Positions 650 through 33,607 of a DNA stretch of 64,000 nt are shown here, in pieces; within the stretch, counting starts at the first letter, position 1, and every line of letters begins with the position of its first letter. This DNA comes from Candidatus Micrarchaeota archaeon. GTDB taxonomy: Archaea; Micrarchaeota; Micrarchaeia; Micrarchaeales; CABMGC01. The notes below the pieces were generated by a model. It made no database searches and had not been told where the DNA came from. It worked only from the letters and a program-made list of their open reading frames with translations. The position numbers and the translations under genes were made by a program. The stretch is from the NCBI GenBank assembly GCA_021828295.1, contig JAKASF010000002.1, positions 407 through 64,406 on the forward strand. The letters are read 5' to 3'.

Positions 650-801
650 TCGTACCAGACTTCTTCCGCGATTTTATCATACCATTTTCTCGGTATTTTT
701 ACTTTTGTTCCATCCCTCAGTACCCTGATTACTGGCTCCTTATCCGCTTTGTCCATAATTTCTTTTTTCTCTTTCTCGGTCATTATCTTTTGTTTTGTCA
801 T
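646..801 (-). CDS. unlisted 51-aa Lys-rich ORF wedged between lplB and lplA (MTKQKIMTEKEKKEIMDKADKEPVIRVLRDGTKVKIPRKWYDKIAEEVWYE)
   Basis: Its ATG (801-799) overlaps the lplB TGA stop as ATGA. Its TGA (648-646) overlaps the lplA ATG as ATGA. It falls below the 60-aa cut-off of the ORF track. Confidence 0.45.
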   Translation of the reverse strand: MTKQKIMTEKEKKEIMDKADKEPVIRVLRDGTKVKIPRKWYDKIAEEVWYE

Positions 802-1082
802 CTTTTCGCCGCCATCCTTATCGTCTCAGCGATGGCTTCTGGGGTAACGCCTATCAGCTCCGCGTTGTTCATCGCCAGCACCTTCGCTATCTTGCCAGAG
901 ATCTCGTCCTTCTTCGCCCTCGGGCTCGTCCCGACCAGCGCCTTCTCTATCCTCGGCAGCGTCTCCTCCGGGTGCAGGAAGAAGTCCCCAAGGATCTGCA
1001 CGCTCCTTATTTTTGGCCCGTAGACCAGCCTCACGCTGACCATCTTCCCCCCAGGAACCTTCTGCTCCGCAAAACCCTCCAC
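798..1082 (-). CDS. lplB: lipoate-protein ligase C-terminal-domain subunit (LplB-like)
   Basis: The 94-aa ORF (VRLVYGPKIRSVQILGDFFLHPEE...) resembles the separate LplA C-terminal domain protein of Thermoplasma-type bipartite ligases. It sits directly upstream of lplA. Confidence 0.7.
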   Translation of the reverse strand: MEGFAEQKVPGGKMVSVRLVYGPKIRSVQILGDFFLHPEETLPRIEKALVGTSPRAKKDEISGKIAKVLAMNNAELIGVTPEAIAETIRMAAKR

Positions 1083-1132
1083 GTATCAAGTATTCGCAAA
1101 AGGTATTTAAGAATTAGGCGAGCATTCCGTGC

Positions 1133-1447
1133 ATGGCACTGCAGAAACTGGGGATAAACAGGAAGGACTTGAAGGAGGACTCTCCGACCGGTGCGGAGGC
1201 GGGAGGGAAGAAGCTCGCTATTGTGCTGCACAAGGGCAAGGTCTTTGCCATTTACGCCGTGTGCACCCACGAGGGCGGGCCGCTTGAGGAGGGCTCCATG
1301 GACGGCGACGAGATAATCTGCCCGTGGCACTCCGGCGCGTACAACATAATGAACGGCAAAGCCGATGAGAACACGAACTGGGTGCACGACACTCCTGTTT
1401 ACAAGGTTGTTGAAGGAAACGGCGGAGAGCTCTCGGTGGAGATGTAG
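1133..1447 (+). CDS. Rieske [2Fe-2S] domain ferredoxin
   Basis: CTHEGGPL ... CPWHSGAY gives the CxH...CxxH Rieske ligands. The protein is 104 aa. A TATA-like element (aaggtatttaagaa) lies about 30 nt upstream. Confidence 0.75.
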   Translation: MALQKLGINRKDLKEDSPTGAEAGGKKLAIVLHKGKVFAIYAVCTHEGGPLEEGSMDGDEIICPWHSGAYNIMNGKADENTNWVHDTPVYKVVEGNGGELSVEM

Positions 1448-2728
1448 CTACTTCCTCCACTCTGCTTCCGACTGCTTCGGTGAGTTCTCGGGATTGGAAA
1501 CGAACTCAGCGAAGGCGTCCTCGAGCCTGTCCGGGTTCCCCAGACCTATGAGTGCCGTTTCGCCTCTGCTCAGCTTCATCGCGTCGTTTATTGTTGCTAT
1601 CTCCTCTGGAGTGGCGGCCGCGTGAGGCTTCTTGTTTGTGAATGATACACAGCCGTATTTGCTGAAGAGATCGTGGTGCGGCTTGTCGTCTGTTTTGCCG
1701 CCGTTTAGCTTTATGGCAAACGCGCGGTTCTCGCCGGCTATGCCCCTCATTATCGTGGGGCTCTTGTTGCCTATGAAAACGCCGGTGACGTCGAAGATGG
1801 TGAGATGGTCGAGCACTTTGTTCTTCGTGGCGCGCTGCTGGTGTGCGGAATAGCGGCGCTGGAGCAGGATGCCGGAGCTGATCAGGAGTGCGGCTACCAC
1901 GTAGTACGGCTCGATTGGCGTGCCGAGCATGAGAAACGAGAAGAGTATTGTCATGAACGGCACCGAGAGCGCCGCATTGCCGGTGACCATCGAACCAAGG
2001 ACTTTTATCGCATAGTAGTAGACCATAGTGCCAGCCGCGTATGCGAGCACGCCCAGGAAGAGCAGTGAGATGATCACTACGGGCGTGAATGCTATGCTAA
2101 TGTTGGTTCCGGTGGCAAGCACGATCGCGGATACGGCTATGAACGAGGCGATGTTGAACAGCGCTATCGCGCCAGCGGTATCTACGTTGTACTTGTTCAT
2201 CGCAAGTATCGAGAACGAGCTACAGAGCGCAGCCAACATGAGTGCGCCCACGTAAGGCGCCTGCGCTGCGCTTATGCTGAAGAGCGTTCCGCTGCTGACT
2301 ATCAGGTACACGCCGACGAAACCTATGACTGTTGCGGCGTACTGCGCTCCCTTTACCTTCTGCCTCAGCACAAGCGGGGTGAGCAGCGCAACGAAGATCG
2401 GCCAGGTCCTATAGAGTATGGATCCTATGGAGGGGTTGGTGCCGAGCGTGCCGATTCCAAGGAAGAGCTGCGTCAGCAGGTCGTTTAGCAGCCCTGCGAC
2501 TATGATTATGCCAAGCAGGCGCGGCTGGCGCGTTACGGCCATCAAGCCTCTGCCCCTGTTGAGCGCCAAGCTTATCGCCACAGACGCTATGGTGCCTATG
2601 AGGAAACCGTAGAAGAGCTCTGGCAGTATACCTATCCTGCTGCCTCCTATCTGCAGCACTATCGACCAGAACGATACCTCGACTATGCCCAGCGTGAGTG
2701 CAATCGCTCCTTTGTAAGATGTCTTCAT
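1448..2728 (-). CDS. DMT/EamA-family membrane transporter with a ~130-aa soluble C-terminal domain of unknown family (module 1)
   Basis: About 10 predicted TM helices are followed by IFDVTG...GENRAFAIKL...ALIGLGNPDRLEDAFAEF. It is a paralogue of 33608-34873 with the same tail. Confidence 0.7.
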   Translation of the reverse strand: MKTSYKGAIALTLGIVEVSFWSIVLQIGGSRIGILPELFYGFLIGTIASVAISLALNRGRGLMAVTRQPRLLGIIIVAGLLNDLLTQLFLGIGTLGTNPSIGSILYRTWPIFVALLTPLVLRQKVKGAQYAATVIGFVGVYLIVSSGTLFSISAAQAPYVGALMLAALCSSFSILAMNKYNVDTAGAIALFNIASFIAVSAIVLATGTNISIAFTPVVIISLLFLGVLAYAAGTMVYYYAIKVLGSMVTGNAALSVPFMTILFSFLMLGTPIEPYYVVAALLISSGILLQRRYSAHQQRATKNKVLDHLTIFDVTGVFIGNKSPTIMRGIAGENRAFAIKLNGGKTDDKPHHDLFSKYGCVSFTNKKPHAAATPEEIATINDAMKLSRGETALIGLGNPDRLEDAFAEFVSNPENSPKQSEAEWRK

Positions 2729-2767
2729 CAGTTAGTATTGGTGAATGGCCTATAATAATCATGCATA

Positions 2768-2793
2768 AATCTGGAAATTTGTTTCCATAGATT
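2768..2793. promoter_or_regulatory. imperfect palindrome AATCT-GGAAA-TTTG-TTTCC-AT-AGATT in the divergent promoter region between transporter and regulator
   Basis: Read directly from the sequence. It lies just upstream of a TATA-like ggatttttatacc and of the regulator start. Confidence 0.3.
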
Positions 2794-2827
2794 GCGGATT
2801 TTTATACCTTGTGTGAGCACCCATATC

Positions 2828-3844
2828 ATGGCAGAAGAAGTGCCTATCTTCACAAACAGGGACAGGATGCTACTGATGGAGCTGAGCGCCGATGCGAGGG
2901 CGAGCCTGACGCACCTTGCAAAGGTCGCCGACTGCTCCGTTGCTACGGCAGCGAAACTTGTTGACAGGCTCACCAGGGCATTGGACATAAGGTTCACGCT
3001 GGAGATAGATATGGACAGGCTCGGCTTCCCGGAGAGGCACATATTGATGCTAAAGTTCAGGAGGAAACCGACAGAGGAGTTCCTGAGGGACTTCTTCAAG
3101 AACGACACGTACGCGCAAGACGTATACCTGGCGAAGGGCGACTTCGACCTGCTCGTATTTGCAGCTGCTGACACGCCGATAAACTACATAAAGTGGGAGA
3201 CGGGCCTGGCGGCTGCACTGTCGGATTATGTGCCGGAGCTCAGGCCCTCGGAGTTCGTCTTCCCGCAGCTCGGCTACGTCCCGCTGGGTGACAACTTCGT
3301 CGACTTCATACGCGAGGAGATCAAGACGGACAGGAAGGACAGGCAGATACTCAGGGAGTTGAACAGGAACTCTAGAATAGGCTACAGGGAGCTGGCTCGC
3401 CTCACGGGCATGAACGAGGACACGATAAGGTACAGGGTCTTCAAGCTGGTCAAGAGGAAGATAGTGAGAAGATTTACCGTTGCGGTGCAGAAGCCAGGTT
3501 ACGGCAGCCTCATCGCCTACTTCCTCAGGTACAGGTTCGGCAAGGAGACGACAACGAGCGCTTTCCCGCAGATGCGAAACCGCTACATGAGCGAAGGCGG
3601 GAAGACGCCGCTGTTGAACACCTACCCTATGATAGCCCCGATAAGCGGAAGTTACAGGTCCTTTGGGATGGCCTTCGACAGGGAGTCGAAGCGGTCGCTG
3701 TACGACGCTGTCAAGTGGCACACGATACTGCTCAAGAAGGAGGAGATAATAGAGCGGCATGCGCTCATCACGAAGACCATCAAGGGACTACTTCCGCTCA
3801 GGAACCTTGATCCGAAGGCAAACTACAGGTTCATATGGACATAG
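2828..3844 (+). CDS. tandem (two-unit) Lrp/AsnC-like transcriptional regulator (module 1)
   Basis: Two HTH plus ligand-domain repeats are present (RDRMLLMELSADARASLTHLAK..., DRQILRELNRNSRIGYRELARLTG...). It is homologous to 32511-33509 (KGDFDLL, LG(F/Y)VPL). ATG 2828 is preferred over the TTG at 2792. Confidence 0.7.
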   Translation: MAEEVPIFTNRDRMLLMELSADARASLTHLAKVADCSVATAAKLVDRLTRALDIRFTLEIDMDRLGFPERHILMLKFRRKPTEEFLRDFFKNDTYAQDVYLAKGDFDLLVFAAADTPINYIKWETGLAAALSDYVPELRPSEFVFPQLGYVPLGDNFVDFIREEIKTDRKDRQILRELNRNSRIGYRELARLTGMNEDTIRYRVFKLVKRKIVRRFTVAVQKPGYGSLIAYFLRYRFGKETTTSAFPQMRNRYMSEGGKTPLLNTYPMIAPISGSYRSFGMAFDRESKRSLYDAVKWHTILLKKEEIIERHALITKTIKGLLPLRNLDPKANYRFIWT

Positions 3845-4110
3845 GCGTTTCGACGGCTTTGATGAAGAAATCCGAAATTATTGCAAATAAAATACGAAAA
3901 TAAATAAGGTATTAATATGATTCCAAGCATATTCTCTGCATGGGAAGGGTGTTTCTGGGCAGGTGGCATACCGTGTCTTATCCTGATGCTACTTCTACGA
4001 TCTCATTACCCACTCTCGAGACTCGCGCCCTTGCCTTTCCCATGCCCACCCAATAGGCGGCAGGGAGTCCTATGCGCAACGAAAAAGAGAGAAGCACATC
4101 GCATACTGGA

Positions 4111-4353
4111 ATGGCAAAACCGCTCTTCCTTCTTATAGAACCCAAAGACCTTGGCGATTCCGGAGAGATTGCGAAGAGGATCGCGGATTGCAAAGGCGTC
4201 AAGGAGGTACACCTGACAAGCGGGAATTACGGCTTCGTCGTTTCCGCGAACGCGGGCACCGAGGGCGATGTGAAGCAGATAAGGTCAAACGTAAGAAAAG
4301 CGTCAAAGAGCAGGGCGGTCAAGGTGGCTCTGAGCCATTTTGTTTACAGGTAG
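4111..4353 (+). CDS. stand-alone Lrp/AsnC ligand-binding (RAM) domain protein (module 1)
   Basis: MAKPLFLLIEPKDLGDSGEIAKRIADCKGVKEVHLTSGNYGFVVSANAGTEGDV has a RAM-domain pattern. It is a paralogue of 31942-32250. The start could alternatively be 4072. Confidence 0.6.
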   Translation: MAKPLFLLIEPKDLGDSGEIAKRIADCKGVKEVHLTSGNYGFVVSANAGTEGDVKQIRSNVRKASKSRAVKVALSHFVYR

Positions 4354-4358
4354 AGCCA

Positions 4359-4499
4359 ATGAGGCGCCTATTTTCCGCTTTAATCAGCGATCGTCCCAAA
4401 GCTTCGCAGCCCCCTGAGGGTCTGAAACTGGATGAGGGCAGGCCAGTAAAGTTTGTGCAGGAGAAAGAGAACGTCTGGAGGGTCGTCTACGCTGACTAA
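4359..4499 (+). CDS. 46-aa mini-protein ending ...RPVKFVQEKENVWRVVYAD (module 1)
   Basis: This is the internal ATG of track ORF 4188-4499, 5 nt after the preceding stop. The C-terminal ~34 aa are conserved with 32247-32480. Confidence 0.45.
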   Translation: MRRLFSALISDRPKASQPPEGLKLDEGRPVKFVQEKENVWRVVYAD

Positions 4500-4522
4500 G
4501 TTGATTTCCGAAAGTTTAAAAT

Positions 4523-4550
4523 ATCTGTATGCTGTATATAGTATACAGAT
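4523..4550. promoter_or_regulatory. CTGTAT(A) repeat/palindrome (atctgtat-g-ctgtata-tag-tatacagat) overlapping a TATA-like element upstream of vapB
   Basis: The arms atctgta/tacagat and ctgtata/tatacag were read directly. The element ends 3 nt before the vapB ATG. Confidence 0.3.
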
Positions 4551-4553
4551 AAT

Positions 4554-4772
4554 ATGAAGACGCTGATGATAGAGGATAGAGTGTACAGAAAACTGCGTGC
4601 GGTCAAAGGCACAAGGAGCTTCAGCAAGCTGCTCGATGCGCTTGTTGAGGAATCGAGGAGTATAAAGAAGGCAAAGCTGCGAAGGGCCTTCGGGACCTTG
4701 AGCAAGGAGAAGGCAGAGGATATTGGGTACGCCATAAATGAGATAAGGAAAAACTTCAAGGTCAGGGTATGA
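4554..4772 (+). CDS. vapB: VapB-type antitoxin
   Basis: This 72-aa protein (MKTLMIEDRVYRKLRAVKGTRSFSKLLDALVEE) is a typical archaeal PIN-partner antitoxin. Its stop overlaps the vapC ATG (ATGA). Confidence 0.65.
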   Translation: MKTLMIEDRVYRKLRAVKGTRSFSKLLDALVEESRSIKKAKLRRAFGTLSKEKAEDIGYAINEIRKNFKVRV

Positions 4773-5164
4773 ATATTTTGCTTGATTCTTCGGCTATAAT
4801 ATCCTACCTCAGAGGAAACGAGGAGCTGCGAAATATCATCGAGTCTGCGGACGAGGTGCTCACAAGCTCGCTGTGCGCATACGAGGTGCTTGAGGGCGAG
4901 AACTATTCCAGAATCAAGAGGAACAGGACCGGGAACGAGGTCGCGACTTTCCTAGAAGACACAACGATTGTTCCACTAGATCGGAAAGACGCGGAGATAG
5001 CGGCTGAAGCGCAGGCAAGGCTGATGGTGAAAGGCCTAGAACAGAACGCAATCGACGTCTTGATCGGAGCCAGCGCTGTGAGAAACGAGGTTGAGCTGAT
5101 CACCAGAGACGGCGACTATGAGGTAATGCAGGAAGTGCTTGGTCTCAAGTTCAGGAAAGTCTGA
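4769..5164 (+). CDS. vapC: PIN-domain ribonuclease toxin VapC
   Basis: The protein is 131 aa. MNILLDSSAIISYL gives the N-terminal acidic D. The other PIN acidic positions are present (E in YEVLEG, D in ITRDGDY). Confidence 0.85.
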   Translation: MNILLDSSAIISYLRGNEELRNIIESADEVLTSSLCAYEVLEGENYSRIKRNRTGNEVATFLEDTTIVPLDRKDAEIAAEAQARLMVKGLEQNAIDVLIGASAVRNEVELITRDGDYEVMQEVLGLKFRKV

Positions 5165-5174
5165 TTGGCCGTTT

Positions 5175-6536
5175 TCATTTTCCGTAGAAGTAGTGTATAG
5201 ACCTGCCGAGCGCGGCCTCTGCGGCTTCCTGCAGCGCCTCGCTGTATGTCGGGTGCGGGTGTATAGAATCGGCTATGTCCTCCAGCGTGGCCCCCATCTC
5301 GATGGCCACCACGGCCTCGCCTATTATGTCCCCGGCGTCGTCGGACACGATCTCCACTCCGCGGACTACGTTGTTCTCGTCTGCGGCTATCTTGACAAAG
5401 CCGTTGGTGGCCTTGAGAGCTACCGCCCTGCCCAGCGCGGTGAGCGGGAATTTTGTGACCTTGAGCCCCTCGCCCTCTATCTCTCCGGCTATGGCTATCT
5501 CAGGGTCTGAGAAGATCACCGCGGGCACAACGATGTTGTCGTAGCCTGCATTCTTCCCTGCGGCCACCTCGGCCGCAACAACACCCTGGCGCATCGCCTT
5601 GTGCGCTAGCAGCGGGTCGCCGATGACATCGCCTATTGCCAGTATGTTCGGGTCCGTTGTTCTGAGCGCGTTGTCCACCTTGATGAAACCCCTCTCGTCG
5701 AGCTTGACCTGAGTGCTCGCGAGGCCCAGGCCCTCGGTGTAGGGCGATAGGCCTACTGCCACGACTATCAGTGACGCGAAGACCCGCTTGCCGTCGCTCA
5801 GCGTAACGGCGTTGGGGTCGTAGGACACTGGGGTCACGCCCGTGTACACCTTTATCCCCAGCTCGTCCATCTTCTTCTTCACCAGCTCTATCGCATCCCT
5901 GTCGAAGTGCGAGAGAACATCCGACCTGGCGACTATCGAGACCCTGGTGCCGAGCTTGGCGTAGAGCATCCCCAGCTCTACGGCCACGTAGCCGGCGCCG
6001 AGTATGACCATGGTCTCCGGTACGTAGTCTAGCAGGAGCGCCTGCTTGTAGTCCAGTATCCTGTCGTTGAACTCGAAGCCCTTGAGCACGGTTGGCTCCG
6101 AGCCGGTGGCTATTATCGCCTTCTCGAAGTCTATCGATCCGCCGCCGCCTATCTGGAGGCTGCTCGAGGATGTGAATACGGCAGTGCCCTTCACAACCTC
6201 CACCCCGTTGGACTTGCAGAGGAAGCCGACTCCGTTCTCGAGCTTCGCAGAGGCTTCGACGCGCCACTTGTTCAGCTCCGCGGCATCGATGTGTATCTCG
6301 CCAACGTGTATGCCGAAGTCTTCAGCATGCTGTATCTCGTAGAACATGTCCGCTACTTTGATCATTGTCTTGGAGGGTATGCAGGCGTAGTTGAGGCAGT
6401 GCCCCCCGAGTTTCTCCTTCTCTATCAGCGCGACGTGCTTGCCGAGCTGGGCAGCGTGTATCGCAGCGAAGTAGCCGCCCACGCCGCCGCCTATGACCGC
6501 GACGTCGACAGCCTCTGGAAGTGAGCCCATTACCAT
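5175..6536 (-). CDS. lpd: dihydrolipoyl dehydrogenase (E3)
   Basis: GGGVGGYFAAIHAAQLG gives the FAD fold. GGHCLNYACIPSK gives the redox disulfide. The C-terminal dimerisation His-Pro motif (HPHPTYSE) is present. Confidence 0.95.
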   Translation of the reverse strand: MVMGSLPEAVDVAVIGGGVGGYFAAIHAAQLGKHVALIEKEKLGGHCLNYACIPSKTMIKVADMFYEIQHAEDFGIHVGEIHIDAAELNKWRVEASAKLENGVGFLCKSNGVEVVKGTAVFTSSSSLQIGGGGSIDFEKAIIATGSEPTVLKGFEFNDRILDYKQALLLDYVPETMVILGAGYVAVELGMLYAKLGTRVSIVARSDVLSHFDRDAIELVKKKMDELGIKVYTGVTPVSYDPNAVTLSDGKRVFASLIVVAVGLSPYTEGLGLASTQVKLDERGFIKVDNALRTTDPNILAIGDVIGDPLLAHKAMRQGVVAAEVAAGKNAGYDNIVVPAVIFSDPEIAIAGEIEGEGLKVTKFPLTALGRAVALKATNGFVKIAADENNVVRGVEIVSDDAGDIIGEAVVAIEMGATLEDIADSIHPHPTYSEALQEAAEAALGRSIHYFYGK

Positions 6537-6968
6537 TTACTTACCATCGATCTTGATTAATGAAACCACGAAACTGATTAGGCTTTCGGCATCTTTTATA
6601 GCTTGGGCCGCGTCCAGTTCGCCAGATAATTCAGTGCTATACTGGATTGAATGCCTTGTCAGCCTGTAGGAGTCCAGAACGTTGAGCCAGTCCTGCAATT
6701 CCTTATTGTCCTTATACAATTCTCTCAGTGCCTCTATCATTGCAAGGTGGCTCCTTTCCTTATAGCCTTTCTCGAACAGCAGCACCCTGGCTGAATGAAA
6801 CATCGCCATATAGGCGAGCAGCATGGAGACATCTGAAAAGCCCATTTCCTGATTGCTTTTGGCTCGTTTGAGGAAGTGCTTGGCTATCAGAATTGAACCC
6901 TTTATCTTGGCGGGATCCCTTGACTGCCTGCTTATGAGCTGTTTTTTGATGAGTTCATCAAGTTTCAA
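6537..6968 (-). CDS. HEPN-domain protein (toxin partner of the upstream nucleotidyltransferase)
   Basis: Helical HEPN pattern with RLTRHSIQY (Rx4-6H). The likely TTG start (6968-6966) overlaps the MNT TGA stop. Track ORF 6537-7049 would overlap the MNT gene by 85 nt. Confidence 0.75.
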   Translation of the reverse strand: MKLDELIKKQLISRQSRDPAKIKGSILIAKHFLKRAKSNQEMGFSDVSMLLAYMAMFHSARVLLFEKGYKERSHLAMIEALRELYKDNKELQDWLNVLDSYRLTRHSIQYSTELSGELDAAQAIKDAESLISFVVSLIKIDGK

Positions 6969-7510
6969 GGCAATACACCATACAAGACCAGATGATTCTT
7001 TGACACCGAAAGATAAAAAGCGTCCTTTTTCTCCCCGAGGCTCCTCCACCTTCCGATGCTCATGATTTCAATGTGTACCTCTCTGCCCAACAGCCTCTCG
7101 ATATCTTTGATACCGCCCAGATCAAGCTTGGGCGAACCGGATATTGCAAGAAGGTCTATATCGCTGCTCTTGTCGTATTCGCCGGATGCGGCGCTGCCGT
7201 AAAGCGCCAAGCCGGTAAGGCCTGCGTTCTTTTCCGCAATCCCGCTGACCTTCGGGAATATCTTCATGAGCAGGTAGGCTCTTTTCAGCTCGCGTGTCAG
7301 TGGCGTATCTGCAAGCGCATAGAGCGATGCGTTGCCTACGCTCTCCTTGTCGAGCACGCCCTCGCTCTCGTAGAAGCGCGAGTACCTCTGCGCGGTCTGC
7401 GGGCTTACCCTGAGCAGCCTAGACAACTCTTTTATGTAGGCCCTGTTGCCGTTCAGGAAGAACTCCAGCACGGTCCAGCCCTTGAATTTGTGCCATTCGT
7501 CGATTATCAT
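6965..7510 (-). CDS. minimal nucleotidyltransferase (MNT) with N-terminal wHTH; antitoxin partner of HEPN
   Basis: LALYGSAASGEYDKSSDIDLLAI matches the GSx10-DxD NTase motif. An N-terminal wHTH is present (IKELSRLLRVSPQTAQRY). Confidence 0.8.
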   Translation of the reverse strand: MIIDEWHKFKGWTVLEFFLNGNRAYIKELSRLLRVSPQTAQRYSRFYESEGVLDKESVGNASLYALADTPLTRELKRAYLLMKIFPKVSGIAEKNAGLTGLALYGSAASGEYDKSSDIDLLAISGSPKLDLGGIKDIERLLGREVHIEIMSIGRWRSLGEKKDAFYLSVSKNHLVLYGVLP

Positions 7511-7520
7511 GATTTACCAT

Positions 7521-7560
7521 ACTATCGTTTGATATATAATACTATCGTTTGATATATAAT
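7521..7560. repeat. perfect 2 x 20-bp tandem repeat actatcgtttgatatataat, a duplicated TATA-containing promoter segment of the MNT-HEPN(-lpd) unit
   Basis: Copies at 7521-7540 and 7541-7560 are identical. On the minus strand the proximal ttatatat lies about 30 nt upstream of the MNT ATG (7510). Confidence 0.9.
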
Positions 7561-7590
7561 AAATTACATTTCAGGGTTCAGTACGGCCAA

Positions 7591-7655
7591 GTGGCCACCA
7601 CTCCGCAGCCTATCACCGCGACGTCTACAGCCTCTGGAAGAGAGCCCATTACCAT
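7591..7655 (-). pseudogene. relic copy of the lpd 5' end (ATG plus 16 identical codons, then frameshift and stop)
   Basis: 7591-7655 aligns with 6471-6536 at about 58/66 identical with one gap. It translates to MVMGSLPEAVDVAVIGCGVVATWPY*, against the Lpd N-terminus MVMGSLPEAVDVAVIGGGVGG. Confidence 0.75.
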
Positions 7656-7773
7656 AAATTCAGGAATACAGCACGAGCAAATCTTAATTAGCTAACGCTG
7701 GACCAAAGCCGTCCAAAACGAATTCACAGATATTTTAATAACCAGTGAATCCACATAGGCTTGAGGGGGAAGC

Positions 7774-8538
7774 ATGAAGATAATGCTTGAGCACAGGGAG
7801 ACCGCCACTCCGTACCTGAAGAAGTTCTTCGAGAAGTTTGACGTGGTGAGCGAGGGCGGGGACCTGTGCGTGGTCGTTGGGGGAGACGGGACGTTTATGC
7901 GCGCCGCGGGGAAGCATGACGCGCCAATACTGCTCATAAGGGACGGGGCGAAGGGCAGCGTAGGCTGGTACTCTGATGTGTCTGTAGATGACATCGGGAT
8001 GGTTGTCGAAAAACTGATCAGCGGCCAGTACCAGGTGGAGACCCTGGCTAACAAGCTCGAGGTCAAGTTCAACGGGAGGAGCAGCTACGTGGTGAACGAC
8101 GCCGTGATCCACGCCCAGGAGGGGCGCGAGATAAGCCTGCAGGTGAACCAGATAAGCAACGGAAGGTTCGAGAGGCTCACACCGAAGGCCATTCCGGGAG
8201 ATGGAGCGATCATCACCGGCAAGATAGGCTCCACTGCGTACAACATGTCGGCAGGAGGGCCGATAGTCAGGGACCCGGACGTGATGTGCGTGACGTTCAT
8301 AGCTCCTGACTCGCCGCTGCGAAACTCCATCATACCTGCGCGCGGCAGCGCGATCGAGATAGAGGTGGAGAAGTCGAGGGGCTCGCTGCTTAACGACGGT
8401 ACCAGGGCCGCGGAGGTTGACGAGGGGGATGTCATAACCGCCACAGTATCGCAGCAACAGCTCAGGGTAGTGACCTTCAGCGAGAAGAGAGAGGACTTTT
8501 CAGAAAAATTTGGAAGAGTCCTTAGGGGAAAGCTTTAG
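7774..8538 (+). CDS. nadK: NAD kinase
   Basis: VVGGDGTFMRAAG gives the GGDG motif. The protein is 254 aa with the NAD-kinase C-terminal beta domain pattern. Confidence 0.85.
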   Translation: MKIMLEHRETATPYLKKFFEKFDVVSEGGDLCVVVGGDGTFMRAAGKHDAPILLIRDGAKGSVGWYSDVSVDDIGMVVEKLISGQYQVETLANKLEVKFNGRSSYVVNDAVIHAQEGREISLQVNQISNGRFERLTPKAIPGDGAIITGKIGSTAYNMSAGGPIVRDPDVMCVTFIAPDSPLRNSIIPARGSAIEIEVEKSRGSLLNDGTRAAEVDEGDVITATVSQQQLRVVTFSEKREDFSEKFGRVLRGKL

Positions 8539-8539
8539 C

Positions 8540-9142
8540 TCATTGCTTTAACTCGGCAGGCAACTTGTCGCTCCCTATCGCGAGTATCTTTTTCTGGCTC
8601 GTATTCACAATGGTCATCGATCCGGGCACTATCCAGTTCGCATCCCTCGGTATGGCATCATCGTCGTACACGGTATCAAAAAGGGCGAGCGCGGCGGTGA
8701 TCGGTCCCTTATGGCTTACCGCTATCACCACTCCGCTGGGCACGTTCTGAACGAACTCTCCCATCCTCGTCTTCTCGCTCTCGAGGCTTTCGAACCCATG
8801 AGGGTAGTTCGACTTTATCTCAGTCATGATCACTTCGTATAGCTCTTTCTCTGAACCGAACTGCCTGTTGTTCAGCTCTCCGTTGCCCCTCTCCCTCAGT
8901 CTGCGGTCGACGCGTGGCTCGGCGCCGAATTCCTTGGCGATTATTTCAGCTGTTTGACGCGCACGCAGAACAGGACTGGTGAATATAACAGCTGGTTTCG
9001 ACAACTGTTTAAGCTCCGAGGCTGTTGCCTCTGCCTGTGATACTCCGGTTGCAGTCAGGGGGTTAATGTTCTCGTCCTCGCTCAGCAGGTATCTTACATT
9101 AACTTCGCTCTGGCCGTGCCTCACGAAGATTATGGTCGCCAT
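8540..9142 (-). CDS. histidine phosphatase (phosphoglycerate mutase-like) family protein
   Basis: MATIIFVRHGQSEVN gives the RHG catalytic motif. Later ...AVSHKGPI is present. ATG 9142 is preferred because it removes the overlap with the E2 gene. Confidence 0.75.
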   Translation of the reverse strand: MATIIFVRHGQSEVNVRYLLSEDENINPLTATGVSQAEATASELKQLSKPAVIFTSPVLRARQTAEIIAKEFGAEPRVDRRLRERGNGELNNRQFGSEKELYEVIMTEIKSNYPHGFESLESEKTRMGEFVQNVPSGVVIAVSHKGPITAALALFDTVYDDDAIPRDANWIVPGSMTIVNTSQKKILAIGSDKLPAELKQ

Positions 9143-9146
9143 GGGA

Positions 9147-10385
9147 TCAGAGCATCTCAAGGAACTCGGGGTCCTGCAGGTACTTTATGACAGCGTTGCC
9201 GAACTTGACCGCATCTGCGCCGTCAACCACCCTGTGGTCGAAGCTTAGAGATATAGGAAGGACCTTGCCTACTGCTACCTTGCCGTCCTTGACGATGGGC
9301 ATGTCCTTTATCATATGCACGCCCAGTATCCCGACCTCGGGATAGTTTATCATAGGCACCGAGAGGAAGCCGCCGCCCAGGCTGCCTATGTTAGTTATCG
9401 TGAAGGTGCTGTCCTTCATGTCATCCAGCGTTATCGTCTGGTCCTGCAGCTTCTTGTGCAGCGCCTGTATCTCCTTGGCCATCTCACCTATGCTCTTCTT
9501 GTCCGCGTCCTTGATGACAACGACCTTAAGGCCGTCCGGAGCCTCTGCAGCGAGGCCTATGTTGTAGTACTTCTTGAGTATCACCTCCTGCGTCTCGTGG
9601 TCGTAGCTGGCGTTGAACCTGGGGCTCTCCTTCAGCGCCTCGACCACCGCCTTTATTATGAACGGGAGGAACGTGAGATGGATGTCCATCTTCGCGGCGT
9701 TGGCCTTCTCCTTGGAGACCATCTCGAAGAGGGCGCTGGCGTCGAGCATGTCCATATGCGTGGCCCTGGGTATCGTCCACGACAGCTCCATGTTCTTTGC
9801 TATCGCCTTCCTCGTGGGTGTCATCTGCTCCCTGCTTATCTCGCCCCCGTGCTGCTCCTCCAGCACCTCAGAGAACTTGGGCATGGGCCTGGAGCTCAGC
9901 GCCTCGCCGTGCGCTATACCCCTTATGTCGTTCTCCAGTATGCGGCCGTTCGGGCCGGTGCCGGTCACCTTTGTTATGTCAACGTTAAGGTCATGGGCCA
10001 GCTTCCTTACCGACGGCGTTGCCATCGGCTCCTTTGCCTTCGGTGCCTGCGGCTGTGCCTGAACTGGCTGTTGCTTCGAGGGCTGAGGCTGCGCCGCCTG
10101 TGCCTGCTGCGGCTGTGCCTGCTTCGGCTGCGCGGGTGCGCTCTTGAGCTCCTCCGGCGTGCCTATCTGCGCCACGAGATCGCCCACGTGCAGCGTCGTG
10201 CCCTCAGGAGCCGCTATCTTGAGCGTGCCCGATATCGGTGCCGGGACGTTGACGACCGCCTTGTCTGTCTCAACCTTGACTATAGGCGCGTCCTCCTTGA
10301 CTGTGTCGCCGTCCTTGAAGAGCCACTGCCTGACGTGGCCCTCGGTTATGCCCTCGCCGACATCTACAAAGCGTATCTCCTTCAT
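9147..10385 (-). CDS. dihydrolipoamide acyltransferase (E2) of a 2-oxoacid dehydrogenase complex
   Basis: The lipoyl domain is present (VETDKAVVNVPAP), followed by an AQP-rich linker and an E3-binding domain (PSVRKLAHDLNVDI). The catalytic DHRVVDG motif is present. Confidence 0.9.
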   Translation of the reverse strand: MKEIRFVDVGEGITEGHVRQWLFKDGDTVKEDAPIVKVETDKAVVNVPAPISGTLKIAAPEGTTLHVGDLVAQIGTPEELKSAPAQPKQAQPQQAQAAQPQPSKQQPVQAQPQAPKAKEPMATPSVRKLAHDLNVDITKVTGTGPNGRILENDIRGIAHGEALSSRPMPKFSEVLEEQHGGEISREQMTPTRKAIAKNMELSWTIPRATHMDMLDASALFEMVSKEKANAAKMDIHLTFLPFIIKAVVEALKESPRFNASYDHETQEVILKKYYNIGLAAEAPDGLKVVVIKDADKKSIGEMAKEIQALHKKLQDQTITLDDMKDSTFTITNIGSLGGGFLSVPMINYPEVGILGVHMIKDMPIVKDGKVAVGKVLPISLSFDHRVVDGADAVKFGNAVIKYLQDPEFLEML

Positions 10386-26782: not shown

Positions 26783-26906
26783 ATGCTATTGATTGCCAGG
26801 GATAACTTAAAATGTCTTCGACTAATAGTATATTGGGGTTATATTTAAACGTTGACGTTAAAATCGGCTTAGGTTTATAGCACTTTTCCGTCGGGGTTTG
26901 CTGTTT

Positions 26907-29849
26907 ATGGAATTTAAGAAGCTGAGCGATGTCAAGTTTGAGCTCGCAAGGGACGAGAGCAAAGGCATGCGAACCAACGTTATCGCGTACGCGACAGAGC
27001 GGATGCTCGACAAGATAAAACAGGACAGGACTGTGTCGCAAGCTGTGAATGTCGCGGGCCTGCCCGGGATAGTAGGCAATGTGCTGCTCATGCCAGACGC
27101 GCACGAGGGCTACGGCATGCCAATCGGGGGCGTGGTGGCGTTCGACGCCGAGGCAGGAATAGTGTCGCCGGGCGCGGTAGGGTTTGATATAAACTGCCTG
27201 CACCCAGAGGCACGCATTTACGACGCGGAAGGCTCTTGGCATAGAATACGTGACTTCAAGAGTAAAACTGTAGACTTACTAAGTTTCGACGTGCGCGCCG
27301 CAGAGTGCCTCAAGACAAACGCTATTCTTTTGATTGAGAAGCAATGCGATAAGCCAATGCTTCGCATAGTGACCTCTTTGGGCAAGGAAATACTTGCAAC
27401 CGAAGACCACCCGATACTTACCGATCGGGGTATGGTCAAGACGGGAGAACTCAGGGTTGGGAATAGGATCGTCTCGACTGGTCTTGACGGTCTGGAGTTC
27501 ACTGAGCCGGGCAACAGGACAATCCTGTCTGAGGAGCGGCTTATAGAGACACTAAGGAGCCTCGGCATTACAGAGAAGGGCAATGCGCTCGCTCAGGTAC
27601 TGAATGCACTGAGGCGAGCGGGGCTAAGCAGCATAAACCTCAGCCATCCCAAGCTTCACATTCTGTTAAAGTTGCTCGGTTTGGTTTTTGGAGATGGAAC
27701 TGTACCAAACACAAGAGGAGGCATATCCTATACTAAATTCTATGGTAAAAAGGAAGACCTGGTTAAGGTTCAGGAGGACATACAAAAGCTTGGATTCCAT
27801 GCGGGCTTGTACCACAGAAGTAGACATCATAAGATAAACACAGTATACGGTACGAGAGAATTTGATTTCGAAGAATACTCGCTTTCGGTCGGCGCCGCGG
27901 CTTTTAGCTCATTACTCGTGTGCCTTGGTGCACCCTTTGGTAATAAATCGGCACTGTCTTACCGGGTACCAGAGTGGATCATGAATGCTGAAGATTGGCA
28001 GAAGCGGCTTTTTGTTGCTGCTTATTTTGGAGCTGAGATGTCAAAGCCTCAAGCGCATAATGGATACAACTTCCAACCGCCTGCTTTCAGTGTAAACAAG
28101 CTTGAGGAATTGGGCGACAATGCTGTCGCATTCCTTAAAGACATCGCGAGCGTGCTGAACTCTTTGGGAGTGCAAACGATGCAGCCTGCAGTTGTCGAAG
28201 GCTATAGGTATGCTGGCAAAAGGGGAAAGACGCTGGGCTTTAGGCTGGGTGTGCTGTCAAATACAGAGAACTTGGTACGATTCTTTGGCTCTGTTGGCTA
28301 CATTTACAATAACGAAAAGGAAAGGCTCGCGAGCCTTGCAGCGCTATACCTGGGCTATTTGAGTAAAATAAGATCCTCGCGTGACGCAACGAGAGCAAAA
28401 GCCATAGAAATGAAGTCGCAGGGAATTGACAGTAGCGCTATAATCAGGCAGCTCGCTAATGGCCGTGCGGCGGAAAGCTTTGTAGAGCATACGCTGTGGG
28501 GGAGAACGGGAGCTGCTAGGATATGGAAAGACGTGAAGTTCAGGGATTTCGCAGACAAGTTTGAGATTGGAAAAAGTGGCTTGGTATATGATGCGGTTGA
28601 AAGCAAAGAAGTAGTTCCTTATGAAGGTAAGGTATTCGACCTTACGATGAACCACGAAAGCCACAATTTCATTGCAAACGGAATTGTGGTGTCGAACTGC
28701 GGCGTGAGGCTGATAAAGACCGGGCTCACGGAGAAGGAGGTCAGACCGAAGCTTGGCGCGCTCATGGACGCGCTCTTCAAGAACGTCCCGAGCGGAGTTG
28801 GCAGCAGGCTCAAGACAGGCTTCACTGAGCAGGACCTCAGGAAGATAGCCGAGGAGGGGGCCAGCTACGCAATAGAGAAGGGCTATGGCTGGAAGGAGGA
28901 CGTTGAAAGGATAGAGGAGAACGGGACGATGGTGAGCGCCGACTTCTCGAAGGTGAGCAAAGAGGCGAAGTCGCGCGGACTCGACGAGCTCGGAACACTC
29001 GGAGCCGGAAACCACTTCCTTGAGGTCCAGAAAGTGGAGAGGATATTTGACGAAAGAGTGGCGGACGAGTTCGGGCTCCGCAGGGATCAGGTGGTGGTGA
29101 TGGTGCACTGCGGCTCACGCGGCTTCGGACATCAGGTATGCAGCGATTACCTTCGCAGGCTCGCCGAGCGCCAGACGAAGAGCGGCACGCAGGTGGCCGA
29201 TAGGGAGCTCGCATATGCGGAGATAGGGAGCAAGGAGGCCGATGACTATCTGGCGGCGATGAACAGCGCCGTCAATTACGCATTTGCGAACAGGCAGATG
29301 ATAATGCACAACATAAGGAAGAGCTTCGAGGAGACCTTCGGCAGGAGCGCAGACGCGCTAGGCATGCACCTGCTCTACGATGTGGCGCACAACATAGCCA
29401 AGCTTGAGGAGCACACTGTTGACGGAAAAAGAACAGCGGTATATGTACACAGGAAAGGTGCGACAAGAGCTTTTCCGAGGAACAGCGAAGGCATACCCAA
29501 GGAGTACAGGGGCATAGGCCAGCCTGTGATAATACCGGGCAGCATGGGTACGAGCAGCTACATACTCTGCGGCGAGGAGGGCTCGATGAAAGAAACTTTC
29601 GGTACCACGTGCCATGGGTCCGGCAGACTTATGTCAAGGCACCAGGCGCTGAGGGACTTCCCTCCGGAGAAAACGTTCCAATCGCTCAAGAGCAAGGGGA
29701 TAGAGATACGCGTGCGCACGAGGAAGCTGATAAGCGAAGAGGCGGAGTGGGTGTACAAGAACGTCGACGACGTGGTCGGCGTTGTGGAAAAGGCCGGAAT
29801 ATCAAAAATCGTCTCGAAGAACGTGCCGATAGGAGTCGTCAAGGGCTAG
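26907..29849 (+). CDS. rtcB: RNA-splicing ligase RtcB, interrupted by one intein
   Basis: The exteins read ...LMPDAHEGYGMPIGGVVAF...GAVGFDIN / CGVRLIKTG...HCGSRGFGHQ...GTTCHGSGR, which are the RtcB metal and His motifs. The spliced size is about 479 aa. Confidence 0.9.
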   Translation: MEFKKLSDVKFELARDESKGMRTNVIAYATERMLDKIKQDRTVSQAVNVAGLPGIVGNVLLMPDAHEGYGMPIGGVVAFDAEAGIVSPGAVGFDINCLHPEARIYDAEGSWHRIRDFKSKTVDLLSFDVRAAECLKTNAILLIEKQCDKPMLRIVTSLGKEILATEDHPILTDRGMVKTGELRVGNRIVSTGLDGLEFTEPGNRTILSEERLIETLRSLGITEKGNALAQVLNALRRAGLSSINLSHPKLHILLKLLGLVFGDGTVPNTRGGISYTKFYGKKEDLVKVQEDIQKLGFHAGLYHRSRHHKINTVYGTREFDFEEYSLSVGAAAFSSLLVCLGAPFGNKSALSYRVPEWIMNAEDWQKRLFVAAYFGAEMSKPQAHNGYNFQPPAFSVNKLEELGDNAVAFLKDIASVLNSLGVQTMQPAVVEGYRYAGKRGKTLGFRLGVLSNTENLVRFFGSVGYIYNNEKERLASLAALYLGYLSKIRSSRDATRAKAIEMKSQGIDSSAIIRQLANGRAAESFVEHTLWGRTGAARIWKDVKFRDFADKFEIGKSGLVYDAVESKEVVPYEGKVFDLTMNHESHNFIANGIVVSNCGVRLIKTGLTEKEVRPKLGALMDALFKNVPSGVGSRLKTGFTEQDLRKIAEEGASYAIEKGYGWKEDVERIEENGTMVSADFSKVSKEAKSRGLDELGTLGAGNHFLEVQKVERIFDERVADEFGLRRDQVVVMVHCGSRGFGHQVCSDYLRRLAERQTKSGTQVADRELAYAEIGSKEADDYLAAMNSAVNYAFANRQMIMHNIRKSFEETFGRSADALGMHLLYDVAHNIAKLEEHTVDGKRTAVYVHRKGATRAFPRNSEGIPKEYRGIGQPVIIPGSMGTSSYILCGEEGSMKETFGTTCHGSGRLMSRHQALRDFPPEKTFQSLKSKGIEIRVRTRKLISEEAEWVYKNVDDVVGVVEKAGISKIVSKNVPIGVVKG
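27195..28697 (+). mobile_element. 501-aa intein with LAGLIDADG-type homing endonuclease domain inside the RtcB DINCGVR motif
   Basis: It starts with Cys1 (CLHPEARIY). Block B is ATEDHPILT. Endonuclease blocks LLGLVFGDGTV and VAAYFGAEMS are present. It ends ...GIVVSN followed by +1 Cys. GC content is lower than in the exteins. Confidence 0.85.
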
Positions 29850-30304
29850 TTTACAGAAACCTTTTTCTTGTTTTTGAACTCAAAGTGGATAGGCCAAATT
29901 ACAAGTTGCTTTGGTTCCGCTTCTTCATCCAAACTTATTCTTGACCTCAACAGCCCTGCAAACCCTCCGAAGATTTCGAATAGCTCTGGGATTTTGTTGT
30001 GCACATCTATGTTTGAAATATCCTGAACGATTGTAGGCAAGGCCTGATTAAGCAAAGGGATGTGATCTATAACAACTCCTGCCGCCAAACCCGCTCCGAG
30101 CCCGAGGGCGGTGCCGGTTAGTGTGAGGGCTGCCTGGGTAGCGATGTATTTCTTGCTTGGAACTGTCATAGTAAAGGTGTAGGTGCTTTTACTTAGATAA
30201 GAGTTAAACCTGACCCATTTCTTCTCGTATTTGGTAGCCCAATCGCTCTTGGCTTTAATTTCCATGACAACTAGAAAGCGTTGGCTTTTGGCATTTATAA
30301 ACAT
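29846..30304 (-). CDS. hypothetical membrane-associated protein (152 aa), AT-rich cassette gene convergent with rtcB
   Basis: It starts MFINAKSQRF... and has a hydrophobic Gly/Ala segment (ALTLTGTALGLGAGLAAGVVI). The N-terminal 46 aa of track ORF 29846-30442 are antisense to an rtcB relic, so ATG 30304 is preferred. Confidence 0.45.
   Translation of the reverse strand: MFINAKSQRFLVVMEIKAKSDWATKYEKKWVRFNSYLSKSTYTFTMTVPSKKYIATQAALTLTGTALGLGAGLAAGVVIDHIPLLNQALPTIVQDISNIDVHNKIPELFEIFGGFAGLLRSRISLDEEAEPKQLVIWPIHFEFKNKKKVSVN
29862..29876 (+). terminator. oligo-T tract (tttttcttgttttt) 13 nt after the rtcB stop
   Basis: Two T5 runs were read directly, in the style of an archaeal intrinsic terminator. 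Confidence 0.35.
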
Positions 30305-30334: not shown

Positions 30335-30397
30335 GAGAAAGCGGGCATATTGAAAATAGTTTCCAAGAACGTGCCAATGGGCGTTGTCAAGGGTTGA
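30335..30397 (+). pseudogene. relic copy of the rtcB 3' end (last 20 codons plus stop)
   Basis: It translates to EKAGILKIVSKNVPMGVVKG*, against the RtcB C-terminus EKAGISKIVSKNVPIGVVKG* (29787-29849). Nucleotide identity is about 75% with mostly synonymous differences. An in-frame stop precedes it. Confidence 0.7.
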
Positions 30398-33509: not shown

Positions 33510-33569
33510 CCTGGGACCAGCCTCGGCATATTTTAAAAATACGAATTTTTGGTTAATATTTTTTAAATT

Positions 33570-33599: not shown

Positions 33600-33607
33600 T
33601 CAAAATC

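Follow-up and report, generated by a model that had tools for sequence, protein, structure and literature searches.

Toxin–antitoxin (TA) modules have long been called 'mobile'; to our knowledge, however, they are devoid of a recombinase, and their mode of movement is largely unexplained. The locus described here raises this question in a tangible form, since the genes of a putative TA pair were found between an intact lpd gene and a second copy of the lpd start within a 64 kb stretch of DNA from a Micrarchaeota archaeon (the whole stretch that was analysed, here termed the window). How could such a cassette enter the beginning of an essential gene and leave that gene intact? A sequence-only reading had proposed that the cassette landed inside the 5′ end of lpd, which survived either by duplication of its terminus or by import of a terminus together with the cassette. 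The features of the locus are listed in Table 1.

Table 1. Features of the lpd locus (window positions)
Feature	Position	Strand	Evidence
lpd (dihydrolipoamide dehydrogenase, E3), intact, 453 aa	5175..6536	-	Pfam Pyr_redox_2, Pyr_redox_dim, Pyr_redox
Proximal (functional) repeat copy, lpd nt 1-71	6466..6536	-	Local alignment score 95
HEPN gene, 143 aa, putative toxin	6537..6968	-	Pfam PF05168, E=2e-16
MNT gene, 181 aa	6965..7510	-	Pfam NTP_transf_2 (E=4e-8), Polbeta, residues 87-153
Cassette promoter/operator	7511..7561	-	TATA box, TRF repeat, alignment of 12 cassettes
Spacer between relic and cassette promoter	7562..7585	-	Not conserved among cassettes
Distal relic copy of lpd nt 1-71, minus 1 nt	7586..7655	-	Alignment to lpd
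Relic ORF, 25 codons	7655-7578	-	ATG at 7655
Original divergent intergenic region with lpd and NAD kinase promoters	7656..7773	.	Aligns with the L004 intergenic region
NAD kinase gene, neighbouring host gene, marker of the orthologous locus	7774..8538	+	Pfam NAD_kinase, NAD_kinase_C

The sequence-only reading had described a duplicated lpd start of ~66 nt with ~88% identity and had proposed a formal alignment against shuffled controls. Local alignment of the two minus-strand copies revealed 62/70 identity with one 1-nt gap, at a score of 95 compared with 15.0±2.0 (maximum 24) for 500 shuffles, which bears out the duplication. By blastn, the repeat extended over 58 nt (91% identity, E=7e-17), and no second match comparable to it was detected in the 64 kb window; in a search for repeats with a spacing of ≤6 kb, it represented the direct repeat of top strength in the window. 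As had been reported, the distal copy retains its ATG, and the relic ORF, which begins MVMGSLPEAVDVAVIG, is identical to Lpd at 16/16 residues, after which a 1-nt deletion causes a frameshift and a stop after 25 codons. The spacer that follows exhibits weak similarity to lpd nt 71–105 and may represent either lpd sequence that has decayed further or DNA of the donor's former context. Lpd itself is 66–85% identical to the Lpd proteins of Micrarchaeota metagenome-assembled genomes (MAGs). A second ATG at 6530, corresponding to a protein of 451 aa, is present in all relatives and was selected by the gene callers of assembly collections, and may be the true lpd start.

A relative carrying lpd directly behind a promoter of the 7656–7773 type had been predicted, and was identified as a Micrarchaeota MAG (L004) whose Lpd is 80% identical to that of the window. 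The context in L004 is the same as in the window, consisting of E2, His-phosphatase and, on the opposite strand, NAD kinase (81% identical), and an intergenic region of ~110 bp, which aligns with 7656–7773 and shares the conserved block CCAGCGTTAGCTAA(T/A)TAAGATTT, leads directly into lpd. Both the cassette and the pseudo-start are absent between NAD kinase and lpd in this genome, and the duplicate lpd start is absent from all 11 cassette-free orthologous loci (L001–L011), a distribution at odds with the conserved leader that the sequence-only reading had named as its counter-case. The L004 empty site and the orthologues thus support insertion of the cassette in the beginning of lpd. The exact 451-aa Lpd was found solely in the filled context, with no population-level empty site among the exact-Lpd protein matches. 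When ranked by Lpd similarity, cassette-bearing lpd loci (the window, L020 and L021) were shown to be interspersed with cassette-free ones; their upstream contexts differ (NAD kinase, reversed His-phosphatase and E2), so that homology would be available on one side only.

The inserted unit is foreign in composition, with a GC content of 48.4% compared with an average of 55.7% for the window (rank 14 from the bottom among 246 one-kb windows) and GC3 values of 57% for HEPN, 70% for MNT and 78% for lpd. Together with the Pfam assignments and an archaeal TATA box, these values corroborate the earlier description of an AT-richer MNT and HEPN pair with its own promoter between the two copies. The two genes run in the same direction and overlap by 4 nt (TTGA), and their pairing was observed again in more than 40 related loci. 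The HEPN gene starts with TTG, and its stop codon (TAA, 6539–6537) directly adjoins the lpd ATG at 6536, in agreement with the zero spacer that had been noted. On the basis of these sequence features, the pair is assigned to the HEPN-MNT (type VII HepT/MntA-like) TA modules, with a putative toxin and a putative antitoxin. The MNT protein harbours the GSx10DxD motif (YGSAASGEYDKSSDIDLL), of which G105, S116, D117 and D119 were invariant in an alignment of 17 homologues, while its ~85 N-terminal residues probably constitute a winged-helix DNA-binding domain, MNT homologues being annotated with the precomputed helix-turn-helix domains PF13412, PF12802 and PF12840. Sequence matches of the HEPN protein to the solved HEPN/UPF0332 proteins 9xbd and 2HSB were weak; its stretch YRLTRHSIQY aligns with LRNRSDY of 9xbd, itself a weak match, and the R and H residues of this stretch are adjacent or three residues apart, so that the canonical Rx4-6H spacing is not evident.

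A TATA box (TTATATAT) is located ~25 nt upstream of the MNT ATG, a distance indicative of a leaderless mRNA, and the promoter is conserved from approximately −48 to the ATG in an alignment of 12 cassettes. Positions 7519–7561 form a perfect tandem repeat (20 bp×2.2, TRF), and the TA promoter is probably autoregulated. The half-sites ACGATAGT and ACTATCGT are candidate targets of the MNT N-terminal domain. The claim that lpd has lost its old promoter and is read from the TA promoter only was not established: the upstream region 7656–7773 now lies 1.1 kb from lpd, but the old promoter it carries remains upstream in unchanged orientation, and the T runs between it and lpd amount to a single T5 (7019–7015), which makes read-through from both promoters possible.

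No mobility function was recognized in the cassette or its surroundings. The cassette encodes no Pfam domains besides NTP_transf_2/Polbeta and HEPN and is not bounded by terminal inverted repeats, and no integrase or transposase domain was detected among 30 window ORFs of 220–500 aa. The hallmarks of transposons and insertion sequences are consequently lacking, i.e. terminal inverted repeats and a transposase, and the repeats are of variable length (20–70 bp). Cassette alignments revealed neither conserved arm sequences next to the repeats nor any conserved motif outside the segment from −48 to the HEPN stop, and relatives of MNT were absent from IMG/VR viral contigs, PLSDB plasmids and phage records.

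Flanking repeats were shown to recur across the cassette family. A flanking direct repeat with a score of ≥40 was present in 6 of 34 testable cassettes, compared with 0 of 91 shifted controls; approximately three quarters of the family cassettes have no flanking repeat. Junction sequences vary among cassettes, and the repeats, which range from 20 to 70 bp, are derived from the target. In L021 the cassette is flanked by a 37-bp lpd repeat, whereas the repeats correspond to the 3′ end of another gene in L022 (37 bp), to the 5′ start of an ATP-cone/Mrr gene in L025 and L028 (48–57 bp), to a target terminus in L042 (49 bp) and to most of tRNA-Ala in L057, L059, L061 and L062 (60–68 nt). The repeat-bounded unit of L057 spans 3.1 kb and also contains an Mrr-like gene and a TFB gene. 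L025 and L028 were rejected as independent events, as they have MNT genes of 97% identity and the same junction, and the similarity of a candidate decayed relic in L020 was not significant. The cassettes with tRNA-Ala repeats are distant relatives of the window cassette, and the other repeat-flanked cassettes of the family reside in genomes that look archaeal. No direct repeats were found around the neighbouring VapBC pair, or around the ParE pair of L003. Within the window, the last 62 nt of rtcB were shown to be duplicated around a gene of 138 aa, a cargo unrelated to the TA cassette.

A particular arrangement was encountered in L018, whose cassette is 83%-related to that of the window and lies at a locus without homology to any lpd neighbourhood. 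Its left flank corresponds to lpd nt 16–69 (90.7% identical to the window lpd, E=6e-16) and its right flank to lpd nt 1–24, and both sides of the junction share CTTCCAGAG, 9–10 bp in common with the target. These permuted lpd pieces fit the re-insertion of an excised circle. The sequence CTTCCAGAG, a candidate crossover core, is common to both window copies and both L018 junctions; the repeat extents differ between insertions, and informative sites are too few for a firm assignment.

The origin of the second copy was addressed through codon positions. Seven of nine differences between the lpd copies fall at third codon positions (six synonymous and three nonsynonymous codons), a bias with P=0.008 against an expectation of 1/3 and P=0.06 against a conservative null of 0.47, which allows for synonymous evolution of the functional copy. 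When the six coding repeat pairs were pooled, 34/46 differences occurred at third positions, with P=2e-8 for an expectation of 1/3 and P=2e-4 under the null of 0.47; for the rtcB copies, the count was 14/16. Furthermore, two 3′-end relics hold an alternative in-frame stop codon (TGA versus TAG for rtcB, TAG versus TGA for L022). Both the third-position bias and the alternative stops are expected if the copies evolved as working termini in different lineages. Of the two origins considered in the sequence-only reading, import with the cassette is favoured over duplication of the gene's own terminus by the 7/9 third-position differences, and one lpd copy is, to judge from these patterns, probably a foreign allele rather than the product of an in situ target duplication. 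The relic is identical to its own lpd at 62/70 positions and to that of L004 at 60/70. When 12 native lpd starts were compared in order to call the native copy, the relatives proved too distant at synonymous sites to be informative; the window relic has a G at nt 42 in common with the L018 left arm alone, which is suggestive, albeit a single site.

Short sequence motifs were also considered. A repeat of the 7-mer ttaccat had been reported at the junction between HEPN and lpd; the copy at 6530–6536 is present, while the second lies at 6541–6547 instead of 6540–6546, and the region holds four copies rather than two. In its reverse complement, ATGGTAA, four of the seven window copies fall in the cassette region. 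The copy preceding MNT is window-specific (relatives have ATGATAG, ATAATAT or ATTATAC there) and that at the HEPN end is common to L018 only, and ATGGTAA was therefore rejected as a general recombination core; the 7-mer is probably without mechanistic meaning. A supposed remnant of the lpd TATA box in the 3′ end of HEPN (TTAATCAAGAT, resembling TAATTAAGAT) was attributed to chance, as its spacing differs and L018 lacks it.

We regard it as reasonably probable that the ~1.05-kb wHTH-MNT/HEPN cassette was inserted in the first ~70 nt of lpd by homology-anchored recombination. Incoming DNA would have carried the lpd 5′ end of a donor, a relative whose own lpd was already preceded by the cassette. 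One conceivable route is Campbell-type integration, in which a circular cassette bearing an lpd fragment enters the chromosomal lpd through a single crossover; the other is homology-facilitated illegitimate recombination, in which crossing-over within lpd relies on homology and the second joint, at lpd nt ~70, is illegitimate. Both routes would yield the order old promoter, relic, cassette and complete lpd, whereby lpd would stay intact as the third cistron behind HEPN, and the relic would then decay by the 1-nt deletion and a Gly-to-Cys change. Recombination between the repeats could release the cassette as a circle with one lpd-like segment. Host recombination and an addictive TA pair would account for spread and retention without a recognizable cassette recombinase. 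Against this homology-based route, the 9–10 bp at the L018 junction are more reminiscent of microhomology or of the core of a site-specific system, most family cassettes have no flanking repeat, and the route presupposes efficient recombination on ~70 bp of homology in Micrarchaeota. Neither a donor nor a circle junction was seen among the matches to lpd and the cassette.

Direct repeats at gene termini would also arise if an integrase, supplied in trans or since deleted, had integrated the cassette site-specifically, and the locus may alternatively be the remnant of a larger integrated element (CIME-like). The lpd-like segment would here represent an attP mimic of the lpd start, with the TA pair surviving between attL and attR. 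We consider such an origin unlikely, albeit worth serious thought: the repeats, above all the 3′ tRNA-Ala parts of 60–68 nt, are typical of att sites, larger versions exist (the L057 unit), the L018 break within the lpd-like segment at the 9-bp identity resembles a secondary att site, and an attP mimic would equally supply an imported gene terminus, so that the synonymous bias fits. However, no integrase was found in any of the repeat-bounded units or among the 30 window ORFs, and at least five unrelated targets (lpd, ATP-cone/Mrr, two other genes and tRNA-Ala) would need as many specificities. Repeats at the same target differ in length (70 versus 37 bp, and ~90 nt or more to be assumed for the L018 ancestor) and are without conserved arms, and the rtcB case has unrelated cargo. 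A more speculative variant, to which we attach little probability, is that the cassettes are a distinct class of minimal mobile elements, i.e. ~1-kb units of a promoter and two genes, excised as circles with a captured gene terminus that re-integrate without a canonical recombinase. Such elements would target gene starts, gene ends and tRNA genes via a short core such as CTTCCAGAG, in a reaction catalysed or directed either by proteins of the cassette itself or by an unrecognized host activity, and an essential host gene would in this way become the downstream cistron of the cassette.

Divergence in place, in which a staggered break of ~70 bp in lpd was filled in and the copies subsequently drifted apart ('insertion with long target duplication'), appears improbable. 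The structure is as published for such insertions (PMC2853133), with repeats of >30 bp over a start or stop codon, no mobility genes and a relative with an empty site, and the relic matches its own lpd slightly better than that of any relative. The pooled third-position bias under the conservative null nevertheless argues against it, as do the alternative stops, which neutral decay does not predict; moreover, HEPN proteins are RNases in the description given in PMC3710099, so the cassette offers no obvious source of a DNA break. That no insertion occurred, the pseudo-start being a conserved leader of lpd, a small ORF that regulates it or else an assembly artefact, is barely credible. The relic does lie behind a promoter that looks intact, with its ATG and 16 codons still in frame, yet it is frameshifted further on, it has no counterpart in any of the 11 cassette-free loci and the L004 site is uninterrupted. 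As to an artefact, two independent assemblies, ENA ERZ27237313 (L016) and Logan SRR13205814 (L017), contain the identical arrangement and repeat, and a repeat of 88% identity is too diverged for assembly collapse or a chimera.

The locus thus provides junction-level anatomy for a TA insertion, comprising an empty site, a long repeat with mostly synonymous differences and an ectopic permuted copy. It points to homology-anchored import in which a conserved gene terminus serves as landing pad and a spare copy keeps the essential gene alive, and suggests a route by which a cassette may move without a recombinase gene of its own. Given the recurrence in the family and the rtcB case, small cassettes may commonly be gained in this way in DPANN genomes. 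As a result of the insertion, lpd, which is essential and belongs to the 2-oxoacid dehydrogenase complex, is now located directly behind a putative toxin gene and a TA promoter.

In Campbell-type integration and homology-facilitated illegitimate recombination, a short anchor brings in adjacent foreign DNA, and the homologous segment may flank the insert on both sides without a dedicated recombinase. The present case differs in that the homology is ~37–70 bp, the Micrarchaeota events are deduced from sequence and gene termini seem to be used repeatedly by a single cassette family. Integrases that act on att sites classically leave duplicated 3′ tRNA parts. As in CIMEs and tRNA-targeting elements, direct repeats restore the terminus of the target gene, and distant relatives of the cassette have duplicated 3′ tRNA parts; unlike in such elements, there is no integrase in cis and none was detected among the 30 window ORFs, the targets are many and unrelated, the repeats variable and arms absent.

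With HepT/MntA (type VII) modules the cassette shares a two-gene operon of small proteins, MNT followed by HEPN, and a patchy distribution that includes insertion inside operons of otherwise syntenic genomes (PMC2701414). Its HEPN protein appears by sequence to belong to the UPF0332/COG2250-like group, and its MNT protein differs in the additional, probably winged-helix, domain of ~85 residues at the N-terminus. Recent insertions and deletions of HEPN-MNT modules between close genomes have been described (Makarova, Wolf & Koonin 2009, PMC2701414), there without junction anatomy or mechanism.

The closest parallel in structure is found in restriction–modification (RM) gene complexes, for which insertion with long target duplication was reported (Nobusato et al. 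2000, as cited in PMC2654758) and later treated by Furuta, Abe & Kobayashi 2010 (PMC2853133). In both settings an addiction module is inserted with no mobility gene in the unit, the repeat exceeds 30 bp (70 bp here, single-copy in L004 and ten more orthologous loci) and often covers a start or stop codon, and the target gene is kept intact. The lpd locus differs in its cargo (a TA pair, or an unknown small gene at rtcB), in its DPANN archaeal host and in the permuted ectopic L018 copy, which hints at a circular form. The lpd copies, furthermore, differ mainly at synonymous sites, a signal that is moderate for the lpd pair alone. The lpd locus therefore resembles an insertion with long target duplication, from which it would be set apart by the likely foreign origin of one copy.

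The lpd locus was shown to carry a nucleotidyltransferase (MNT) and HEPN gene pair between two copies of the lpd start, and Pfam assignments bore out this arrangement, which had been proposed from a sequence-only reading. On the minus strand, the proximal, functional copy (lpd nt 1-71) was identical to the distal copy, or relic, at 62 of 70 positions with one 1-nt gap, yielding a local score of 95 compared with 15±2 (maximum 24) for 500 shuffles and a blastn E value of 7e-17, with no comparable blastn match elsewhere in the window. The claimed duplication was thus confirmed, as was the described decay of the relic, which retains the ATG and 16/16 identical codons, followed by a 1-base loss and a stop after 25 codons. 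An identical structure was observed in two independent assemblies of the locus (ENA and Logan). The cassette was indeed AT-richer, with a GC content of 48% versus 56% for its surroundings and a GC3 of 57-70% for its genes versus 78% for lpd. The lpd ATG directly adjoins the HEPN stop, so that lpd represents a third cistron behind HEPN with the zero spacer noted earlier, or one of six nt if translation actually begins at a conserved second ATG. The old lpd promoter is located 1.1 kb upstream of lpd in the same orientation, with a single T5 run in between.

Coordinates, strands and assignments of features in the window
Feature	Position	Strand	Assignment
EamA-family transporter gene pair, first	1448-3844		
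Region downstream of lpd	3845-5174		
93-aa protein	4072-4353		resembles Lrp ligand-binding domain
VapB-VapC pair	4554-5164		
Lpd	5175-6536	minus	Pfam
lpd start, functional copy	6536-6466	minus	
HEPN	6537-6968	minus	Pfam
Nucleotidyltransferase (MNT)	6965-7510	minus	Pfam
Tandem repeat in cassette promoter	7519-7561		
lpd start, relic	7655-7586		
Intergenic region with TATA-like block	7656-7773		
NAD kinase	7774-8538	opposite to lpd	Pfam
Genes splitting the 2-oxoacid dehydrogenase operon	7774-9160		
His-phosphatase, then E2 and E1-beta of 2-oxoacid dehydrogenase complex	beyond NAD kinase		Pfam
rtcB	26898-29849	plus	Pfam (RtcB, Intein_splicing, LAGLIDADG_3; LAGLIDADG match weak)
rtcB end, functional copy	29787-29849		
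138-aa gene	29846-30262	minus	no Pfam match
rtcB end, relic	30335-30397		
206-aa convergent gene	30387-31007		
EamA-family transporter gene pair, second	32511-34873		

Comparison with cassette-free orthologous loci made it certain that the cassette at lpd is an insertion. The best Lpd matches were derived from Candidatus Micrarchaeota MAGs (66-85% identity), and in most of these loci (e.g. L001, L002 and L005-L007) E2 abuts lpd. In the window and in one relative, L004, the 2-oxoacid dehydrogenase operon is interrupted in the same way: E2 is separated from lpd by a gene for a His-phosphatase and one for NAD kinase, the latter in reverse orientation. The ~110-bp intergenic region of L004 aligned with that of the window, including the TATA-like block, and led directly to lpd with the cassette absent, representing the empty-site relative that had been predicted. 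Furthermore, the lpd start was duplicated in 0/11 cassette-free loci, which argues against the pseudo-start being a conserved leader. Loci with and without the cassette were interspersed by Lpd similarity. In L003, a DUF7557 and ParE toxin pair (5500-5996), for which no flanking repeat was found, is placed precisely between the stop of E2 and the ATG of lpd, while L002, with a 97% identical Lpd, is empty at the same site (5990-6001); toxin-antitoxin pairs have therefore landed repeatedly at the position before lpd.

Downstream of lpd, the region encoding VapB-VapC and a 93-aa protein is replaced in L004 by unrelated sequence (3247-4300) between conserved flanks, and no flanking repeat was detected around it. 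The window also contains two similar gene pairs, each encoding an EamA-family transporter and a protein of ~330-350 aa with a winged-helix/AsnC-type domain, a possible paralogous duplication.

The MNT protein contains the GSx10DxD motif and ~85 additional N-terminal residues, its homologs having winged-helix Pfam domains in precomputed annotation, and the HEPN protein is of the UPF0332/AF0298 type. Among 12 related cassettes, the promoter was conserved from ~-48 to the MNT ATG, with a TTTATATAT box ~25 nt upstream of this ATG, a spacing that would suit an archaeal mRNA without a leader. Half-sites, ACGATAGT and ACTATCGT, lie on either side of the box; in relatives they form an inverted pair around the TATA box, and they likely represent an operator. 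In the window promoter, a perfect 20-bp x 2.2 tandem repeat is present, in which a copy of the first unit substitutes for the second half-site, suggesting that the operator may be altered in this genome. In cassette alignments, conservation ended at ~-48 upstream and at the HEPN stop downstream, and neither terminal inverted repeats nor a Pfam recombinase domain were found in the unit. Similarly, no integrase or transposase domain was present among 30 window ORFs, and searches of plasmid, phage and viral contig databases each returned no relatives.

The cassette family was shown to be habitually located immediately 5' of host genes, as a co-directional gene starts within ~12 nt of the HEPN stop in at least 15 loci (L016, L020, L021, L023-L025, L028, L030, L040, L041, L047, L056, L063, L092, L096 and L104). 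Among closer relatives, L020 and L021 (MNT identity 61-62%) again carry the cassette directly before lpd, with the lpd start duplicated over 37 bp in L021 and no significant relic in L020. In L022 (58%), the cassette lies downstream of another gene, the last 37 bp of which are repeated after HEPN, and in L019 (83%) it occupies a third context. A metagenome scan added ~80 more distant loci. When the 400 nt left of each cassette were aligned to the 400 nt right, a repeat score of ≥40 was obtained for 6/34 cassettes versus 0/91 shifted control windows, the repeat being absent from most cassettes. Strong direct repeats corresponded to the start of an ATP-cone/Mrr-like gene (48-57 bp; L025/L028) or of another gene (49 bp; L042), and shorter ones were found in L032 (20 bp) and L033 (23 bp, resembling a tRNA 3' end). 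In L057, L059, L061 and L062, 60-68 nt of tRNA-Ala(GGC) are repeated, with the fragment after HEPN; the intact tRNA gene was located left of the cassette in L057, L059 and L062, as well as in L064, and was not found in L061. At the L057 locus (755-4052), the unit bounded by the repeats measures 3.1 kb and additionally encodes an Mrr-like nuclease and a TFB.

The window contains another insertion flanked by a long repeat of a gene terminus, at rtcB, which encodes an intein-containing protein of 983 aa. The last 62 nt of rtcB recur 548 nt downstream with 78% identity. Of the 16 differences, 14 affect third codon positions, and the relic ends in frame with a TGA of its own. The relic also covers the stop of the next gene downstream, which is convergent, in what looks like the original arrangement. 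The gene between the copies is unrelated to the wHTH-MNT/HEPN cassette, indicating that the process extends beyond this family.

A repeat made in place from one sequence is expected to accumulate differences randomly over codon positions. At lpd, 7/9 differences were at third positions (P=0.008 vs 1/3; P=0.06 vs 0.47), with six synonymous and three nonsynonymous codons, and for six coding pairs pooled the count was 34/46 (P=2e-8 and P=2e-4, respectively), the 0.47 null being conservative in that it allows the functional copy synonymous evolution only. Moreover, two 3'-end relics have a different stop codon that is still in frame. Owing to this bias and these alternative stops, each copy looks as though it had evolved as the terminus of a functional gene, the two in separate lineages, which argues against the staggered-break model of 'target duplication' put forward for restriction-modification units (PMC2853133) and favours recombination anchored in gene homology. 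Import of one repeat copy along with the cassette is accordingly the best-supported mechanism, and we consider it moderately probable. Such import could proceed by integration of a circle carrying a gene terminus, or by a homologous crossover in lpd combined with an illegitimate join at nt ~70. Differences in upstream context between lineages make the second of these routes plausible.

A cassette copy outside any lpd neighbourhood provides evidence of movement. L018 (1-1481) carries a cassette that is 83% related (80% identical in nucleotides) at a locus without homology to any lpd neighbourhood, and yet lpd nt 16-69 (90.7% identical to window lpd; E=6e-16) lie left of its promoter and lpd nt 1-24 directly after the HEPN stop, with CTTCCAGAG at both ends. 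The 9-bp overlap is too short to have come from a k-mer assembly chimera. The permuted order would fit re-insertion of a circle, had this arisen by recombination of one repeat with the other. The L018 junction and the tRNA repeats also speak for the main rival, a trans-acting integrase that uses a mimic attP; this route, too, would import a terminus. It is weakened by the many unrelated targets, by repeats that vary in length and by the lack of conserved arms.

Makarova et al. (PMC2701414) reported that MNT-HEPN modules had recently been inserted or deleted and gave no detail of the junctions. Around restriction-modification units, long target duplications that often span start or stop codons were described by Furuta et al. 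(PMC2853133), the mechanism being unknown. A non-exhaustive literature search retrieved no description of such anatomy for toxin-antitoxin cassettes or in archaea. The long repeats at gene termini resemble those around restriction-modification units, whereas here the cargo is a toxin-antitoxin pair and the host archaeal.
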